Source: a virus | Lineage: Duplodnaviria; Caudoviricetes | Virus record (IMG/VR): IMGVR_UViG_3300037512_001279 | Span: 57,657 to 121,656 of that record | Length of the DNA stretch: 64,000 nucleotides | Direction: 5' to 3' (one strand) | Shown: piece after piece, positions 13,418 through 58,168 of the stretch | Layout of the letters: each line of letters starts with the position of its first letter | Position numbering within the stretch: position 1 is the first letter of the stretch | The notes under the pieces: generated by a model | The model's input: only the letters and a program-made list of their open reading frames with translations | The model's database searches: none | What the model was told of the DNA's origin: nothing | Made by a program: the position numbers and the translations under genes

Positions 13418-14770
13418 GTGAACCACTCAGACTTATAGAAGTCGGAGCTTCCTGCTTCAACCACTACTGCGTTCCTAACAAGTTACCTTGTCGGCTCGTC
13501 TTACACAGTGTCCACAGGCGTTGATTCGGATAGTTCCTACCCTATTGTTTATAGTTACGCTGATTCTAAGATTCTCAATCCCTCTACCTTGATATTGATA
13601 GCAGAGTTCCAATCTCTGTCTATTCCTTTGTGACCGCAATGAGGGCAATCCCATTTACGGATTCTAAGGTCTTTGAGATTTTCACTTCTATATCCGCACC
13701 AGTGACAGAGTTGAGAACTTGGGAACCACTTGTCTACTTTTATCAGATACCCGCCACGTTCTTTTAGTTTGTATTCTAAGAAGTTTACAAACATTCCGTA
13801 GCCATTATCCAAAGTAGCTTTACCATTTCCGAAGCCTTTATTTGCCATAGACCTCATATTAAGATTTTCCACACATACGCAAGCGTACTGATTGGCTGTC
13901 TCAGTTGACTTCTTATGTAGAAAATCTTTTCTTTGATTAGCTATGTGTCTATGTATCTTAGCTATCTTCTTTTGTTGTTTTCGATAATTGTTACTTCCGA
14001 TAATTTTATGTTTTAGCTTATGTTGAGCCTTTGCCAGTTTATCTTGTGATTGTCTGAAATAATGCGGCATATCACAATTATTGCCATCGCTATCCACATA
14101 AAGACCGTCTGACTTATAATCCAAACCCAGTGTATTCATACTGGTTACTGGAGCATATAATTCTTTAGTTTCATACTCAAATAATATAGAAACCTGATAA
14201 GTACCATCTCTATTTTGAGTGATAGTAGCTGATTTAAGTTTCCAATCTTCATTAGGTTTCCTATGTATCTTAGCTTTTATCCTACCTAACTTTGGCAGTT
14301 TGATATAATTATCGCCTATCTCTATATTGTTATTGGTATAATTCGTTGTATAACTTTTCTTTGCCCTATGCTTATTCTTATACTTTGGATAACCGCCTTG
14401 CTTTTTGAAGAATTTGTCAAAACCATAAGCTAAATGAAATACTGCATTACTTAAAGCAAACTTATCGACTTCATTTAAGAAAACAAACTCTTTCTTTAGA
14501 TGTTGAGTGCAGTAATTATTCGCTGATAGTTTGGATAAATGTTTTTCTCCATTCTTATATCGTTCTTGTTGTACACTAAGCATCTGATTATACACAAACC
14601 TGCAACAGCCAAAAGTCTTTTGGCATAATTCGGCTTGTTCTTTATTTGGGTATATAGCGTAAATATAGGCTTTATTTGTCATAAGACTTTTCCTTTCCGT
14701 AAGATTATAACTGTTGATAGTACTAACTCCTCCCTACTTCGTTGAGGAAGTGGTTGCGCACCTGTTTTAT
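13418..14770 (-). mobile_element. non-autonomous IS200/IS605-family element (tnpB only)
   Basis: Right-end hairpin ending TTCAC at 13418; left-end hairpin near 14727-14751; exact left boundary uncertain. Confidence 0.7.
13555..14682 (-). CDS. tnpB: RNA-guided endonuclease TnpB
   Basis: HTH_OrfB N-terminus, GLDYK / VENL / DRDWNSAINI RuvC D-E-D, CxxC..CPxC zinc finger. Confidence 0.93.
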   Translation of the reverse strand: MTNKAYIYAIYPNKEQAELCQKTFGCCRFVYNQMLSVQQERYKNGEKHLSKLSANNYCTQHLKKEFVFLNEVDKFALSNAVFHLAYGFDKFFKKQGGYPKYKNKHRAKKSYTTNYTNNNIEIGDNYIKLPKLGRIKAKIHRKPNEDWKLKSATITQNRDGTYQVSILFEYETKELYAPVTSMNTLGLDYKSDGLYVDSDGNNCDMPHYFRQSQDKLAKAQHKLKHKIIGSNNYRKQQKKIAKIHRHIANQRKDFLHKKSTETANQYACVCVENLNMRSMANKGFGNGKATLDNGYGMFVNFLEYKLKERGGYLIKVDKWFPSSQLCHWCGYRSENLKDLRIRKWDCPHCGHKGIDRDWNSAINIKVEGLRILESA

Positions 14771-15315: not shown

Positions 15316-15384
15316 TGTGTATCTCCTCCTTTTTATGTGAAATATATCTATCTATTAATTCTCCAAAAATCTTTATAAAATAAG

Positions 15385-15413
15385 AAAAACGCCACCGATT
15401 TCTCGATGACGCC
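15385..15413 (-). terminator. intrinsic terminator
   Basis: Minus-strand GCGTCATCGA-GAAA-TCGGTGGCGT followed by T-tract. Confidence 0.7.
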
Positions 15414-15441
15414 TTCCTTTTGGAGGTATTTTATGAAATAA

Positions 15442-16260: not shown

Positions 16261-16710
16261 TTAAACCTCTCTTTCAGACAAAACGATAAAATCTTTGCCG
16301 CCAAAATATCCAAGTTCTTTTAACAAATCTGATATAAATTCATCATCATGATCAATTCTCTTGAATACTAACTTATATCCCTGATCTAAGTATTTCAGAC
16401 ACTCATTATATTTTTTCTTTTCGTATTCATTCCACTCATCATTTAGCCATTCTTCCAACGTGTCATACCGGCTACACTGAACGTCTTCATTAAATTGTGC
16501 ATCCAGTTGATATTTTGATACTACTGAAATTCCTTCTTCAGTCTGGTAGGAAGAACCCCTCGCATACATAAGTCTCTCTACGAGATTATTGAAGTTGGCA
16601 AGAAATGGATATTTTTTGATAGTCTCCTTATCAATCTTTGGGATTTCTTTATAGGCAATGATAAACGAACTGCTGCTTGAATTAGTGACGAAATCTGTTC
16701 TAATCTTCAT
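16261..16710 (-). CDS. MKIRTDFVTNSSSSSF-motif protein 3
   Basis: Start at 16710 with GAGGAG RBS; N-terminal motif. Confidence 0.8.
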   Translation of the reverse strand: MKIRTDFVTNSSSSSFIIAYKEIPKIDKETIKKYPFLANFNNLVERLMYARGSSYQTEEGISVVSKYQLDAQFNEDVQCSRYDTLEEWLNDEWNEYEKKKYNECLKYLDQGYKLVFKRIDHDDEFISDLLKELGYFGGKDFIVLSEREV

Positions 16711-16711
16711 T

Positions 16712-16999
16712 TTATCTCTCCTCAATATGCATAATTCCAATGTCATTGCTTGTATATGAATCGCCATGGCTCCATGCGCCCGCAAAATTGTCAATCAAAT
16801 ACTTGTCAAACAAATCTTCCCAATCATCAGTACATTCTATTTCTATCGATTTTCCTGATGTAAGGACAAACTTATCTTTAGCGTCTCTGATAATTCGATA
16901 AAATAGATTCTTCGCAAACTCTTCGCTAGTCATGTTGCTTGCGGTATTGTTCGTGATTATAAATTTGTGCTTTTTACTTTCTGAATAATAGTCGTTCAC
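16712..16999 (-). CDS. paralog of motif protein 1 lacking the NSSSSS motif
   Basis: Aligns by eye with 17506-17808 (FI.TNN...SEEFA..L..RIIRDAK..F.L..G.SIE.EC.D); AAAGGA RBS, GTG start. Confidence 0.75.
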   Translation of the reverse strand: MNDYYSESKKHKFIITNNTASNMTSEEFAKNLFYRIIRDAKDKFVLTSGKSIEIECTDDWEDLFDKYLIDNFAGAWSHGDSYTSNDIGIMHIEER

Positions 17000-17026
17000 A
17001 ATAAGTAACGTCCTTTCTTGATTATT

Positions 17027-17497
17027 TTAGTCGCAATATCCCCACACGATTGGGACATCCGAAAATGCGTTTTCAACAGAATAAAAATCGTACCGGCAGC
17101 ATCCTTTATTATCAATTAGATAATGATGATCTAGTCCTTCCCATTGTTTGTCTTTTTCTAAAGCTTCATTGTAAAGTTCAATTGCATCTTCTTCCGTATA
17201 ACCCCACTCCAAACGTGTTTTTATATATTCATCTCTAGTCTCTCCTCCGGTATATGGAGTGTATGGGTGATCTTTTGTTATAAAGCTTATATAGTAGTTC
17301 CCAACAGAAATTTCTCCTACTTCTTCATCATAAACGACATCTTTCCACCTTATTTTGTCGGAGTAACCAAAGTCTTTACAATCTTCCTGAGCCAATTCCT
17401 TTAGTTTTTTTAATAATTGCCCGAAAGTGCAATCCTTGCGATCAATAATAAAAGAGCTAGAGCTACTGTTAGTAACAAAATCCGTTCTAATTTTCAT
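17027..17497 (-). CDS. MKIRTDFVTNSSSSSF-motif protein 2
   Basis: AGGAGG RBS; N-terminal motif; ends WGYCD. Confidence 0.82.
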   Translation of the reverse strand: MKIRTDFVTNSSSSSFIIDRKDCTFGQLLKKLKELAQEDCKDFGYSDKIRWKDVVYDEEVGEISVGNYYISFITKDHPYTPYTGGETRDEYIKTRLEWGYTEEDAIELYNEALEKDKQWEGLDHHYLIDNKGCCRYDFYSVENAFSDVPIVWGYCD

Positions 17498-17505
17498 AAT
17501 TCCTC

Positions 17506-17808
17506 CTAATGGTGAGACTCCTTGAACTCAACTGAAATATCATTATCCATATAATAGTTGCCACTTCCGAACCAACTTCCTCCACATTCATTATGAATAT
17601 ATGTCTCAAAATAATTTTCATAATGATCTTCGCATTCAAGTTCAATTGATTCACCTGGTTTTAATTCAAATAATCCCTTAGCATCCCTGATAATTCTGCC
17701 AACCAATTTTTCAGCAAATTCTTCTGATGACAAAGTTTCATTAGAATTGTTTGTAAGAATAAAACTACTTGAAGAACTGTTTGTCACAAAATCTTTTCTA
17801 TACTTCAT
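17506..17808 (-). CDS. MKYRKDFVTNSSSSSF-motif protein 1
   Basis: Start at 17808 (AAAGGAG RBS) overlapping the rSAM stop; ends ESHH. Confidence 0.8.
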   Translation of the reverse strand: MKYRKDFVTNSSSSSFILTNNSNETLSSEEFAEKLVGRIIRDAKGLFELKPGESIELECEDHYENYFETYIHNECGGSWFGSGNYYMDNDISVEFKESHH

Positions 17809-18880
17809 TCTGAATAAATCTCCTTTCATTTCTATTGCATAATGTAATCCCATTCATAAGCGGGCAACCACCACCGCACATTGCCCTATTGGGACAACCA
17901 GGGCAAGAATGATTTAATGAATACCTAAATCTGTCGAACATTGCACTATCCCAAACTTCCTGAATAGTATGATCTCTCAGGTTCATGTGCCATTTTGGAT
18001 CTTGATTTGCAAAACTGCATGGCATCATATTCATATTTGCATCAATGTATGCAGAAAATCTACCGCCTTCACAGAAGTCAAGACTGTTCAGATCAATGTT
18101 GTGCGAGTAGTTAATAATACCAGCACAGGTACAACTGTCAAATCCAATCTTGTGGTGGAAATTTTGTTTGCTAACCAATTCAAAAAATTCCTTCACTTTT
18201 GGATCGTCTGGTTTAAGTACATTTTCTGAACGACCAAGCGGTAGCACGTTCTTGTAAAGCAAAAACACAACCGCATTTAATCCTTGTTTGAAACTGTCAT
18301 TCCTTAATCTGCTAATGGCTTCATCAATGGAATTATTTCCGAGAACATAATGAAGACTTGTCTTTACTCCGGCATTCATTAACATGTCAAGTGCCTTATT
18401 CGTGTAATCTGTATTATGCTCTGACACTGCAACCGCGCCGCAATATTCCTTACAAAGTCTAGCCTTCTCAGGAGTCATCATAATTCCACTGGTAGTAAAG
18501 TTCGGAACCATACCATACTGTCTTGTTAACTTTAAAAGCTCTTCAAAGTTCTCGTGAGTATCAACATCACCTGCACCTCCAAGGGCAATTTGCAGGCACT
18601 TACCCTCACACTGTTTCATAATGGATTCATAGTCTTTAACAGACATGTTTGCACCGCATCTTCCAATGGCATTTTGATAACAATCTACTTTACATCTATG
18701 AGCGCATACGCATGTCTGCATTACTCCAATATCCAATAACTCAGGAAAGCTTGCCATAAAAGGATCTACGCCAGTATCATTACCATTCTCATCCAACACG
18801 CCACTTCTCATGTAAAACCCTGTGTCAGTATTAAAAATTGATACAAACTTATTCTTCTTATCATTTTTTCCGATTAACAT
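17798..18880 (-). CDS. radical SAM enzyme with SPASM domain
   Basis: CVCAHRCKVDC cluster motif, IALGGAGD, NFTTSG; SPASM CEGG..YIDANMNMMPC..CPGC.....CGGGC. Confidence 0.9.
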   Translation of the reverse strand: MLIGKNDKKNKFVSIFNTDTGFYMRSGVLDENGNDTGVDPFMASFPELLDIGVMQTCVCAHRCKVDCYQNAIGRCGANMSVKDYESIMKQCEGKCLQIALGGAGDVDTHENFEELLKLTRQYGMVPNFTTSGIMMTPEKARLCKEYCGAVAVSEHNTDYTNKALDMLMNAGVKTSLHYVLGNNSIDEAISRLRNDSFKQGLNAVVFLLYKNVLPLGRSENVLKPDDPKVKEFFELVSKQNFHHKIGFDSCTCAGIINYSHNIDLNSLDFCEGGRFSAYIDANMNMMPCSFANQDPKWHMNLRDHTIQEVWDSAMFDRFRYSLNHSCPGCPNRAMCGGGCPLMNGITLCNRNERRFIQNEV

Positions 18881-18909
18881 TCCACATACCTCCAAATTTA
18901 TTTTGTAAA

Positions 18910-19365
18910 CTATTTCAGTTTACAAATGAGAATCTCAACATCTAATTCTCCAAAAATTTCCTTGATAATTTCAGAAACTTTATCCCACTGTAACTTATCC
19001 AAGCCACATCCGATTTGTGGCATTGCGATTTTCCTAACATCAGGATTATTGATTACCATGGTTCTCATTGCTTTAAGAGCAGATTTCAACGTGTCATAAG
19101 TCGGCTTAAACCAATATTTCTTTTTAGTTATTAGATTATACACGCGACCTTCCAACAAACATGTTCCATGCTCATTGAATATATCCCATCTGTCCTCAAA
19201 ACTGTGACCATATTTGTTGATTAAGCGATTCTTTATGTCAAAATATCTATTGAATTGAACCGCAATACCAGCTCCCATTGCAAAATCTGCACTAATACAT
19301 TGTGCAAAATAGTAATCATCAGATACGGAGAACAAATCTCTTATCTCTTCTTTATAGAGCATCAT
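18910..19365 (-). CDS. macro domain ADP-ribosyl hydrolase (TARG1/DarG-like)
   Basis: CISADFAMGAGIA, YNLITK, IAMPQIGCGLDKLQW. Confidence 0.88.
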   Translation of the reverse strand: MMLYKEEIRDLFSVSDDYYFAQCISADFAMGAGIAVQFNRYFDIKNRLINKYGHSFEDRWDIFNEHGTCLLEGRVYNLITKKKYWFKPTYDTLKSALKAMRTMVINNPDVRKIAMPQIGCGLDKLQWDKVSEIIKEIFGELDVEILICKLK

Positions 19366-19731: not shown

Positions 19732-19761
19732 AAAAAAAGAGCGAAATTAATCGCTCTTTTT
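19732..19761. terminator. bidirectional terminator
   Basis: AAAAAGAGCGA-AATTAA-TCGCTCTTTTT. Confidence 0.7.
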
Positions 19762-19859: not shown

Positions 19860-20510
19860 TTATATTTTAGTTCTTTTAGTATGATTTGCATATGTCTTCC
19901 AGTCTGGTTCATATTCGTCGTTAGCCTGATTTCCCCACATAGCCCAATTATCTCTGTTGCCACGTGCAAATAATTCTATATAAGGCCCAGGACTACATGA
20001 TTCTATTAATGGTATGAATTCATCTGGCTTACGACTGTGTTCTCTCTTCATTGCCCTTATAAGATTTACTTGAGATCTTCCTGGTTGTAATGTGCGAAAT
20101 GTTTTTCCTTTCTTATTTGTTTTAACTCCAAACAGTATTATTTCAGTTACATTCCTAAAATAGAATCCAACACCCCTTCCATCAGGCATTCCATCTTTTC
20201 TAGTTTTTTCCCATATGATATTTGTCTTATAAGTGAATCCCCAAGACTTTAATACTTCAATTCCCTCTATTAATAAAGCGTTTGGAACCCACATATATAA
20301 ATGAGCATCGTCTGCTGTAATTTCATTTACAGGCAAAGATTTTATATCATTTAAAGCCATTGTTGGATATCTTTTATTCTTCATATTTTCAGGAGCAATT
20401 TTACCAGTTCTGTTGCTAAATTGCCATGGTGGGTCTGCATAAACTGTAACAAATTTTTTATCTCCACAAAATTCAAGTAAGTTTTTTGCAGTATCATTCA
20501 TTTCTAACAT
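19860..20510 (-). CDS. MT-A70 family adenine methyltransferase
   Basis: YADPPW, HLYMW, WGFTYKT, GFYFRNVTE, HSRKP, IELFAR. Confidence 0.92.
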   Translation of the reverse strand: MLEMNDTAKNLLEFCGDKKFVTVYADPPWQFSNRTGKIAPENMKNKRYPTMALNDIKSLPVNEITADDAHLYMWVPNALLIEGIEVLKSWGFTYKTNIIWEKTRKDGMPDGRGVGFYFRNVTEIILFGVKTNKKGKTFRTLQPGRSQVNLIRAMKREHSRKPDEFIPLIESCSPGPYIELFARGNRDNWAMWGNQANDEYEPDWKTYANHTKRTKI

Positions 20511-21147
20511 TCTCCTTACATATGCCTATTGCAAGTATTGGACATCCACCTTGTCTTCTACTATCAAGTCTGTATTTTAGTTTTCCAATCCATGTAGTAG
20601 AAGACCCATATTTGCTCTTTACACCAAGCCTCGTGAATATTTCATTTAGGTTTTCTGCTCTTGTTACTATAACGCCAACATCAATTATACCACATTCAAA
20701 ATATGTGCGCATTGCTAATATATCTCTATCGAATGTCTGATCTTTTGAATTCCATTCTAAATCAAGAGCCACTTTTCCTTTTATAAAATCAACATTATGA
20801 CCATCTATAAATTGTTTAATAACTATTTCATCAGTAGGTGTTTCTTCAAAATTACCTTTATGGCATCCACGATTACGTTGATATGATCTAACATGAAGAT
20901 CTCCAGAAATCCTTATTTCTCTCCATCCATAAGGATAAAGTACATTATCAAATTTTTTTGGTATTGCTGATTCTGACCCGCCTGCGTCAGTAATATCAGA
21001 ATGTACTATTTTAAATTTTCTCAAACATTCCTCAATCTCTGACCATTGCTTAGGATATCCTATAGAAATAATCTCCAATGCATGCCCATAGTTTAAAAAT
21101 TCATATCGAGGCAGAAGTTCTGGCCATATATAGTCTTTTAATTCCAT
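20494..21147 (-). CDS. BglII/BstYI-family type II restriction endonuclease
   Basis: HNVDFIKGKVALDLEWNSKD..FDRD PD-(D/E)xK-variant core; paired with MT-A70 MTase. Confidence 0.8.
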   Translation of the reverse strand: MELKDYIWPELLPRYEFLNYGHALEIISIGYPKQWSEIEECLRKFKIVHSDITDAGGSESAIPKKFDNVLYPYGWREIRISGDLHVRSYQRNRGCHKGNFEETPTDEIVIKQFIDGHNVDFIKGKVALDLEWNSKDQTFDRDILAMRTYFECGIIDVGVIVTRAENLNEIFTRLGVKSKYGSSTTWIGKLKYRLDSRRQGGCPILAIGICKENVRNE

Positions 21148-21310
21148 TAAACCACCCCCCAATAATATATTTTTATAATTTAATATATCATAAAATGAGG
21201 ATGTAATGCAATAAAAAGACAAATTTAACCATTCAAACTGTTGTAAATGTCGTAGTCATTAGGCACTTTTAGACGGATAATATATATACTTTTTCTGATG
21301 AATTACTTGT

Positions 21311-57310: not shown

Positions 57311-58168
57311 TTACGCCACCTCTCCCTTGAATACGTATGCATGGTTACTAAGCTGTTCCTGTGCGTCAACCGTTTCAGTATTTACTTCTCCAACCATTCC
57401 GGTAAGATTTTCCTCGTCGTCCGTGGTTCCTACAACGATTACCTCGTGGATGCTCGACGGAAGAACGGTGTATCCGTTCGGGAACTGTCTGCACAACTCC
57501 CTCTTTGCGTTCAAAACAGAAATGGCTCCGTACGTTCTTTCCGTGTTGGTGATGGCAAGCATCTTCGGCTCGTCATATCCAAATCCCAACAATTCTGGAT
57601 CATCAACGCCAATCAGCTCCGCCAACATTTGAGCCGTGGACTTAATAACAATGTCTTCCTTTACGTTTTCCATTGCCTGTCTGATTACTTCTGCCTTTGT
57701 TACTCCCCACTTTTCAATAAACTCAGGCCTTACAAGGATGCTTCCCTTGCCCTTGTCTCCAAGGTCTACCTTGATTCTTGCGGTAATGATGAGATCGTCA
57801 AATCCATACTTCTTTGCGGATTGATGTACGGGAAATGCTTCTGCGTTACACTCGTTGTAAAGGCAGGCCACGAGTTTTCCCTTTACCTGCTCGTAATCCT
57901 GAACCCATTCAATGTCGATGTTTACCTTGTTTTGGTAATAAATCTCAATGGCTCTGTTTGCCGCGTCATATGCGTCAACTTCCTTGTCGTACCACTCGTC
58001 AACGTACAGATTTGGAGATGCGTTTACTCCTTCCTCACGGATGTTGATTCCGGTAAGTACGACTCCGTTGGGCTTGTTAACTTCCTGTACTTCTGCTCGA
58101 ACGGCATATCCCTTTGCGTTGATCTCGTTTGCGATTTCCTGTGCATACTCTCTCTTGTTCATCTTCAT
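57311..58168 (-). CDS. DUF5688-like protein
   Basis: V.KPNGV.LTGI, SPNLY, TN....GA, VLPSSIHEVI, V.EVN...V..E.LS..Y. Confidence 0.8.
   Translation of the reverse strand: MKMNKREYAQEIANEINAKGYAVRAEVQEVNKPNGVVLTGINIREEGVNASPNLYVDEWYDKEVDAYDAANRAIEIYYQNKVNIDIEWVQDYEQVKGKLVACLYNECNAEAFPVHQSAKKYGFDDLIITARIKVDLGDKGKGSILVRPEFIEKWGVTKAEVIRQAMENVKEDIVIKSTAQMLAELIGVDDPELLGFGYDEPKMLAITNTERTYGAISVLNAKRELCRQFPNGYTVLPSSIHEVIVVGTTDDEENLTGMVGEVNTETVDAQEQLSNHAYVFKGEVA

Follow-up and report, generated by a model that had tools for sequence, protein, structure and literature searches.

An N-terminal serine-rich tag linked to a radical SAM/SPASM enzyme in phages and cells: a candidate protein-marking system

The DNA described here is a window of 64,000 nucleotides (nt) from a Caudoviricetes phage (IMG/VR record IMGVR_UViG_3300037512_001279, positions 57,657 to 121,656), which carries on its minus strand a compact array: the gene of a radical S-adenosylmethionine (rSAM) enzyme with a SPASM domain, followed by three genes whose products, hereafter the clients, begin with a common 16-residue tag. 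Enzyme and tag are found together in phages, bacteria and archaea, numbering in the hundreds, and the enzyme may mark the clients covalently at this tag. The enzyme stop codon (17798-17800) lies inside the gene of client 1, which starts at 17808, and the translations give clients of 100, 156 and 149 amino acids (aa), as an initial annotation of this DNA had reported. Their N-termini read MKYRKDFVTNSSSSSF (100 aa), MKIRTDFVTNSSSSSF (156 aa) and MKIRTDFVTNSSSSSF (149 aa), with M-K-[YI]-R-[KT]-D-F-V-T-N-S-S-S-S-S-F as the shared start. A degenerate DNA pattern for DFVTNSSSSSF has exactly three matches in the window and none in 100 shuffles, and the whole 121.6-kb virus record holds no further copy of the tag. 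The codons of the serine run (TCN or AGY) differ from copy to copy, and the tag is not a DNA repeat, again in agreement with that annotation.

All the features that the initial annotation had listed are present, including the ESHH and GYCD endings of clients 1 and 2, which are conserved within their respective families; it had passed over a fourth gene of the array, 16712-16999 (-), and the cluster motif of the enzyme is non-canonical, as described below. The fourth gene is a full-length paralog of client 1 with a decayed tag, and a natural tag-loss control: its body is 43% identical to that of client 1, while ten tag positions are replaced, D-Y-Y-S-E-S-K-K-H-K-F standing in the place of D-F-V-T-N-S-S-S-S-S-F. 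An AAGGA sequence resembling a ribosome-binding site is found 11 nt ahead of its GTG codon. The enzyme reading frame at its full extent covers 17798-18895 (-), with an alternative TTG start at 18895. The coordinates of the array and of its flanks are collected in Table 1.

Table 1. Features of the enzyme-client array and its flanks, in window positions
Feature	Positions	Strand	Remarks
rSAM/SPASM enzyme	17798..18880	(-)	360 aa from ATG at 18880; start chosen by homolog alignment
Tagged client 1	17506..17808	(-)	100 aa, C-terminus ESHH; tag coded by 17761-17808
Tagged client 2	17027..17497	(-)	156 aa, C-terminus GYCD; tag coded by 17450-17497
Untagged client 1 paralog	16712..16999	(-)	95 aa from GTG; homology over whole body
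Tagged client 3	16261..16710	(-)	149 aa; tag coded by 16663-16710
Upstream gene, weak macro-domain match	18910..19365	(-)	Pfam Macro 6.3e-4, under cut-off
Terminator-like hairpin upstream of unit	19734..19761	(-)	consensus scan only
Terminator-like hairpin downstream of unit	15382..15419	(-)	consensus scan only

The association of enzyme and tag was followed in both directions. IMG/VR DNA encoding M-K-x-R-x-D-F-V-T-N-S5-F was collected in 102 stretches from 86 contigs, frequently with 2-7 tags per locus; a close enzyme homolog is encoded in the DNA around the tag in 64 of the 86 contigs, and searches of the whole records add 15 more, so that 79 of 86 encode the enzyme clade. Motif proteins occurring mostly away from any linked rSAM gene, which would have refuted the interpretation of the initial annotation, are thus not what is observed. 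Among bacterial and archaeal contigs, sampled at one genome per species, at least 120 tag loci were found, of at most 8 kb each; among the matches listed, the enzyme is present in 98 of 120, and the loci belong mostly to Bacillota, and also to Bacteroidota, Desulfobacterota metagenome-assembled genomes (MAGs), a Kaiserbacteria MAG from the candidate phyla radiation (CPR) and the methanogen Methanoculleus. With the enzyme as the starting point, a relative is encoded in 291 viral stretches, and a tag lies within 5 kb in 75 of the best 80 of these 291, on which the tag check was made. Nearly all tags (375/376) share the strand of the enzyme and 323 lie downstream of it, the nearest one beginning at a median of about 22 nt beyond the enzyme stop.

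Each enzyme is accompanied by a variable number of clients, three in the window phage and up to seven in other phages. Clustering of all neighbouring open reading frames (ORFs) yielded no third conserved partner gene recurring across loci; the unit consists of the enzyme with its tagged client or clients. Neither the macro-domain gene nor the TnpB gene nor the restriction-modification pair of the window, each considered as a partner and set aside, is linked to the system at other loci. The idea, put forward in the initial annotation, of one rSAM/SPASM enzyme and a portable tag carried by several proteins is thus borne out by the two-way linkage and by the many unrelated bodies that bear the tag. 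Installation of a cofactor or crosslink on the tag, also proposed there, is one candidate reading beside those of a mere handle or a docking peptide. Its description as a phage system was too narrow, since the pair occurs also in bacteria and archaea, at least once in a setting that resembles a defence island.

Diverse small proteins that are encoded in arrays and share an N-terminal signal resemble the internal-protein region of T4, where the internal proteins carry an N-terminal targeting sequence. The tag might then have nothing to do with the enzyme and be a signal for capsid targeting, export or degradation, with the enzyme merely co-travelling in a mobile cassette, and the tags that occur without an enzyme in seven of 86 viral records would agree with this. 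Such an explanation is very improbable, given that the two-way linkage extends across phages and all the cellular groups named above, that it is kept at a chromosomal site lacking phage structural genes for 10 kb around, and that tag variants change along with the enzyme clade. Capsid targeting in particular was judged unlikely in view of the chromosomal, non-phage loci.

The tag is exceptionally constant. When the IMG/VR tag loci were searched again with a regular expression tolerant of other residues at several positions, K2, R4, D6, T9, N10 and S11-15 proved invariant across 231 distinct phage proteins; the family consensus reads M-K-x-R-x-D-F-V-T-N-S-S-S-S-S-[FY]. A profile of the first 34 residues, searched against 1.84 billion representative proteins, returned 19,753 matches at E <= 0.001, a number to be taken as an upper bound because lower-scoring matches may include poly-serine noise; at E <= 1e-10 there are 358. 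Among the top 150 matches the alignment nearly always begins at residue 1; the tag is strictly N-terminal. A sister form of the tag, M-K-x-R-x-G-F-V-S-N-S-S-S-S-S-F, is found among database proteins (P0036-P0043 and P0105), and several database proteins have two tags within one reading frame, which suggests read-through of the array, via recoded stop codons or fusions made in gene calling. Pfam, NCBIfam and PADLOC contain no model of the tag; RefSeq labels the proteins 'hypothetical' and 'SPASM domain-containing', and full-text literature searches returned nothing on this enzyme-tag system, the FxsB system (PMC7159879) being the sole related text. The enzyme-tag pair is unnamed in the databases searched.

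The bodies that follow the tag are of very different kinds. Without the tag, the phage clients fall into 33 BLAST clusters, and profile-profile comparison of the 14 largest with hhalign found only two related pairs; on this result the possibility that the bodies represent one divergent fold was rejected, and the lack of kinship noted in the initial annotation holds at the profile level. Client 1 belongs to a phage family of nine members with a conserved C-terminal His-His. Client 2 matches phrog_7397, a PHROG family with no assigned function, at 1.8e-4, and it has just three full-length relatives in a word-indexed search of a 5.8-billion-protein index; the family is therefore reached through the tag. 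Client 3, which represents the largest body family (41 phage members), matches phrog_7397 at 2.5e-3, chiefly via the tag. Its AlphaFold2 (AF2) model has a predicted local distance difference test (pLDDT) score of 85, with residues 1-10 below 50, hence disordered, and the first strand at 14-20; because the disordered residues precede the fold, the tag is, in this one model, an exposed tail. Foldseek found no match of the model in the PDB at E <= 0.001, and only unnamed phage clusters in the ESM Atlas. The cellular clients reach 919 aa and contain leucine-rich repeat (LRR_5, LRR_8), BRCT, HIRAN, TIR and beta-propeller domains.

A further regularity concerns the other end of the clients: His is the last residue in seven of the 33 phage body families (P = 1.5e-6 against a background of 1.8%), and Tyr is the last in 26 of 118 cellular clients (22%). 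As the bodies lack any general kinship, the common features of the clients are the tag, the strand after it and, to some extent, this C-terminal bias, which might be a second functional element. The bias keeps alive the reading that the tag is only a handle, similar to the leader of a ribosomally synthesized and post-translationally modified peptide (RiPP), and that the radical chemistry takes place elsewhere on the client: possible sites would be the first beta-strand past the tag, the C-terminal His or Tyr, or the unfolded body during or just after translation. The linkage, and the co-variation described below, fit this view equally well, and so does the general rule for RiPP leaders. It is considered unlikely, however, since no shared site is detectable in the bodies, which include large folded LRR and propeller proteins; moreover, the C-terminal bias is not universal, and ten consecutive invariant residues with exactly five serines, preserved from phages to bacteria and archaea, are far stricter than typical leaders.

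Variants of the tag follow the phylogeny of the enzyme. In one phage clade every tag of a genome has Gly6 in place of Asp6, and the enzymes of this clade carry K173T and K244Q, at two lysines that are at least 94% conserved in the others; a lost salt bridge would leave such a picture, with an acid gone from the tag and two bases from the enzyme. Likewise, in the clade that has the canonical CxxxCxxC motif, the tags are of the SSSTS type (N-S-S-S-T-S) in 11 of 11 loci, for all tags of each locus. On the enzyme tree each tag variant forms one well-supported clade, with two changes, the minimum possible; since only two clade-level events are involved, the co-variation is suggestive and not a statistical proof. 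The Gly6-clade loci (L300:3900-6650 (+) and 18 related ones, in the L297-L317 group) also contain 3-5 tandem paralogs of about 95 aa around the enzyme gene, which have no tag and start with M-K-V-G-Q-K-Y-K-V-R-S-W-D-D-M; the family has 73 members in the 19 loci.

Co-folding of tag and enzyme, proposed in the initial annotation, was carried out with client 3 and the enzyme loaded with three 4Fe-4S clusters and SAM. The complex scored 0.49, against 0.00 for the best control, with at least 51% of the contacts shared between runs and a partner pLDDT of at least 50. Of 80 solved complexes, 58 attained the mark set for this score, as did two of 110 mismatched pairs; at scores of 0.60 or less, however, only seven of the 80 solved complexes are at the mark, and both passing mismatches fall in this range. 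The prediction thus lends weak support to a putative binding of client by enzyme.

The enzyme itself is recognised mainly by its SPASM domain, with E-values of 1.5e-6 in Pfam (PF13186, 28.9 bits, cut-off 21.5) and 5.5e-8 in NCBIfam (TIGR04085, 33.1 bits, cut-off 27), and the Radical_SAM model PF04055 gives 17 bits against a gathering cut-off of 29.5. It also matches phrog_7293 (7.6e-23), a PHROG family with no assigned function. The cluster loop is not the canonical CxxxCxxC: Cys57, Cys63 and Cys67 are spaced as Cx5Cx3C and followed by Y-Q, and a sister type of phage enzyme has Cx8Cx6C, also followed by Y-Q; the three cysteines are conserved despite their unusual spacing (57-80 homologs). At the site of the usual GGE SAM-binding motif the enzyme has G-G-A-G-D (G-G-x-G-D in the family), and the SPASM cysteines 250, 270, 288, 326, 329, 335, 339 and 348 show little or no variation across 80 homologs. 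A distant cellular clade of the same family has kept the canonical CxxxCxxC, which indicates that the family derives from true rSAM enzymes. Two phage homologs (L043:3782-6130 (+), and a 789-codon frame on the minus strand of L101) are interrupted by an intein of about 420 residues, with boundaries assigned by eye (C...HN followed by C) and an insert resembling a homing endonuclease, placed exactly ahead of the conserved A-L-G-G-A-G-D motif; inteins prefer essential, conserved sites.

No named family accommodates the enzyme: it reaches 15.3 bits with the anaerobic sulfatase maturase model TIGR03942 (cut-off 349), the tag having no C/S-x-P/A-x-R motif, and 13-41 bits with the NCBIfam models of PqqE, MftC, SkfB, StsB, CbpB and ScmF (cut-offs 265-625). 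Its AF2 model (pLDDT 93.7) comprises an rSAM core, the SPASM domain and an N-terminal beta unit of about 50 residues, with no extra substrate domain, and it matches rSAM structures in Foldseek with E-values down to 5e-12. The closest PDB folds are SuiB, the anaerobic sulfatase-maturating enzyme (anSME), PqqE, CteB and SkfB, and a profile search of PDB sequences gives SuiB (6.6e-9) and SkfB (1.1e-6). As folds and profile search agree, the enzyme groups with the peptide- and protein-modifying SPASM enzymes, outside all the named families.

This grouping bears on another explanation, in which the tag would be a docking peptide and the client would stay unchanged, its body (LRR, BRCT, HIRAN, TIR or a small phage domain) aiming, gating or sensing for the enzyme; the target would then be a third molecule, possibly a nucleotide, a nucleic acid or a host protein. 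The binding, sensor or effector domains of the cellular clients are in line with such a role, as are one cellular locus set amid protease-STAND, PRTase-CE and SocA_Panacea genes and a weak similarity of the enzyme to viperins in PADLOC (1.9e-4), and the co-variation is compatible with binding alone. Nevertheless, the architecture of the enzyme offers no additional domain for such a substrate, the folds closest to it belong to enzymes that modify peptides and proteins, not nucleotides, and docking motifs seldom need five invariant serines or a strict N-terminal position. We therefore regard docking without modification as rather improbable.

Around the array, the gene at 18910..19365 is apparently in one transcription unit with the enzyme gene. 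The hairpin at 19734-19761 probably closes the preceding transcript and the one at 15382-15419 is likely the 3' boundary of the unit, so that bracketing of a transcription unit by the two is plausible. Directly upstream of the operon lies a restriction-modification pair (19860-21222 (-)), in which the endonuclease is BglII-like (6e-40) and the methyltransferase is of the MT-A70 type (3.6e-31). A TnpB/Cas12f-like gene (13555-14682 (-)), some 1.6 kb downstream of the array, has OrfB_IS605, TNB and helix-turn-helix (HTH) domains, and no tnpA was seen nearby. By blastn, the region has no match among 50,697 phage records. The array and its neighbours are an accessory region of the phage.

Taken together, the reading that we favour, with a confidence somewhat short of even, is that the enzyme covalently modifies the tag, or a site beside it, on the co-transcribed clients, the two forming a two-component protein-marking system. 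A change in or beside the tag is favoured because the clients share only about residues 1-20, and because the tag is highly invariant and strictly N-terminal; comparable invariance is seen in motifs where recognition and modification coincide, that of the sulfatases being an example. According to this proposal, the SuiB/anSME-like enzyme would bind directly to the exposed N-terminal tag of a client, and its 5'-deoxyadenosyl radical would then bring about a covalent change within the tag or right beside it. Serine might be oxidised, as it is by anSME, or a crosslink of the ether or C-C type might form among Phe7, Thr9, Asn10, the serine run and Phe16. A single enzyme would in this way serve many unrelated clients, from phage proteins of about 100 aa to bacterial LRR, BRCT, HIRAN and TIR proteins.

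Several points weigh against covalent marking of the tag. Seven of the 86 tag-bearing viral records have no enzyme, and none emerged when a profile search was repeated on five of these; estimated completeness is 26-84% for six of the seven and 92% for the other. The enzyme clade, to which no chemistry is assigned, scores far below the cut-offs of all the named NCBIfam rSAM families, and because the phage clade departs from both CxxxCxxC and GGE, cleavage of SAM by these enzymes is assumed. Furthermore, the conserved leader of RiPPs is usually a handle and not the site that is changed, and cysteine, the commonest target of SPASM enzymes, does not occur in the tag. To these are added the dependence of the suggestive co-variation on two single clade-level events and the weakness of the predicted complex.

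A broader version of this proposal is more speculative and rather doubtful: the 16 residues would act as a general 'radical stamp', any protein fused to them becoming a substrate, with T-N-S-S-S-S-S converted to a new group that arms, anchors or protects effectors on both the phage and the host side. The new group may consist of reactive aldehydes or of a macrocycle closed by an ether or C-C bond, or else be a cofactor derived from the protein.

As regards the biological role, the arrays of phages lie in accessory regions and the cellular clients carry domains typical of immune sensors and effectors. The system may plausibly take part in phage-host conflict, on the side of the phage as well as of the host; the clients may in that case be viewed as effectors. 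On the chromosome of Sporomusa sp. KB1 (L318:5190-14505), a cellular system whose enzyme has the canonical rSAM motif is found in a gene run like that of a defence island, comprising a metallo-beta-lactamase-fold protein, a 929-aa protein with trypsin and STAND NTPase domains, a 133-aa protein, a tagged protein, the rSAM enzyme, an 'integron cassette protein' domain and PRTase-CE; SocA_Panacea is also among the neighbours.

Should the enzyme indeed modify the tag, the modification would be a new post-translational one that relies on a natural and portable recognition tag, acts on whole proteins of many folds and reaches up to about 19,750 protein clusters by the profile search. A large unnamed rSAM clade would gain a defined substrate, and small phage accessory arrays and bacterial LRR, TIR, HIRAN and BRCT proteins would be tied to one maturation step; the system could also provide a small, genetically encoded tag for labelling proteins enzymatically. 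Two small genes of the window make the system directly testable, and the untagged paralog provides a built-in negative control.

Four known systems resemble the one described here. FxsB/FxSxx-COOH systems, which belong to the VMAP ternary conflict systems (Kaur et al. 2020, PMC7159879), likewise have an rSAM/SPASM gene beside variable proteins with a short conserved motif, in the context of conflict systems. Unlike the present tag, however, their conserved FxSxx piece is C-terminal, and FxsB is associated with further components, among them vWA-MoxR and a peptidase, that are not linked to the enzyme-tag pair. In RiPP pathways with one maturase and many precursors, as is generally known for the prochlorosins, an invariant N-terminal piece is followed by a hypervariable remainder and the enzyme gene lies beside an array of substrates. 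The variable part is here a folded protein of 80-900 aa, whereas the prochlorosin-type core is a short peptide; in addition, no protease or export genes occur near the present system and the tag is far more invariant.

The anSME/AtsB structures (PDB 4K36-4K39) are similar in fold, with a template modelling (TM) score of 0.62, and in size, and they also have no RiPP recognition element (RRE); anSME is a SPASM rSAM enzyme that alters a Ser or Cys of a full-length protein, a short conserved motif being both the handle and the site. It differs in acting on one substrate family, as against at least 33 unrelated bodies here, and on the C/S-x-P/A-x-R sulfatase motif that the tag does not contain, in keeping with the 15 bits (against 349) of the window enzyme with TIGR03942. 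The best match, in both profile (E 6.6e-9) and fold (TM 0.64-0.71), is SuiB/StrB, which with SuiA forms the Lys-Trp crosslink of streptide (PDB 5V1Q/5V1T). Identity to SuiB is just 14-17%, the cluster motif of the window enzyme is non-canonical and, instead of a full RRE, only about 50 beta residues precede its core; it has as clients entire folded proteins from many families, with no Lys-Trp motif, whereas the SuiB substrate is one short peptide. What the two systems have in common is the combination of rSAM and SPASM domains with two auxiliary clusters, and a co-encoded polypeptide that is recognised, or in the window phage would be recognised, by its N-terminal segment.

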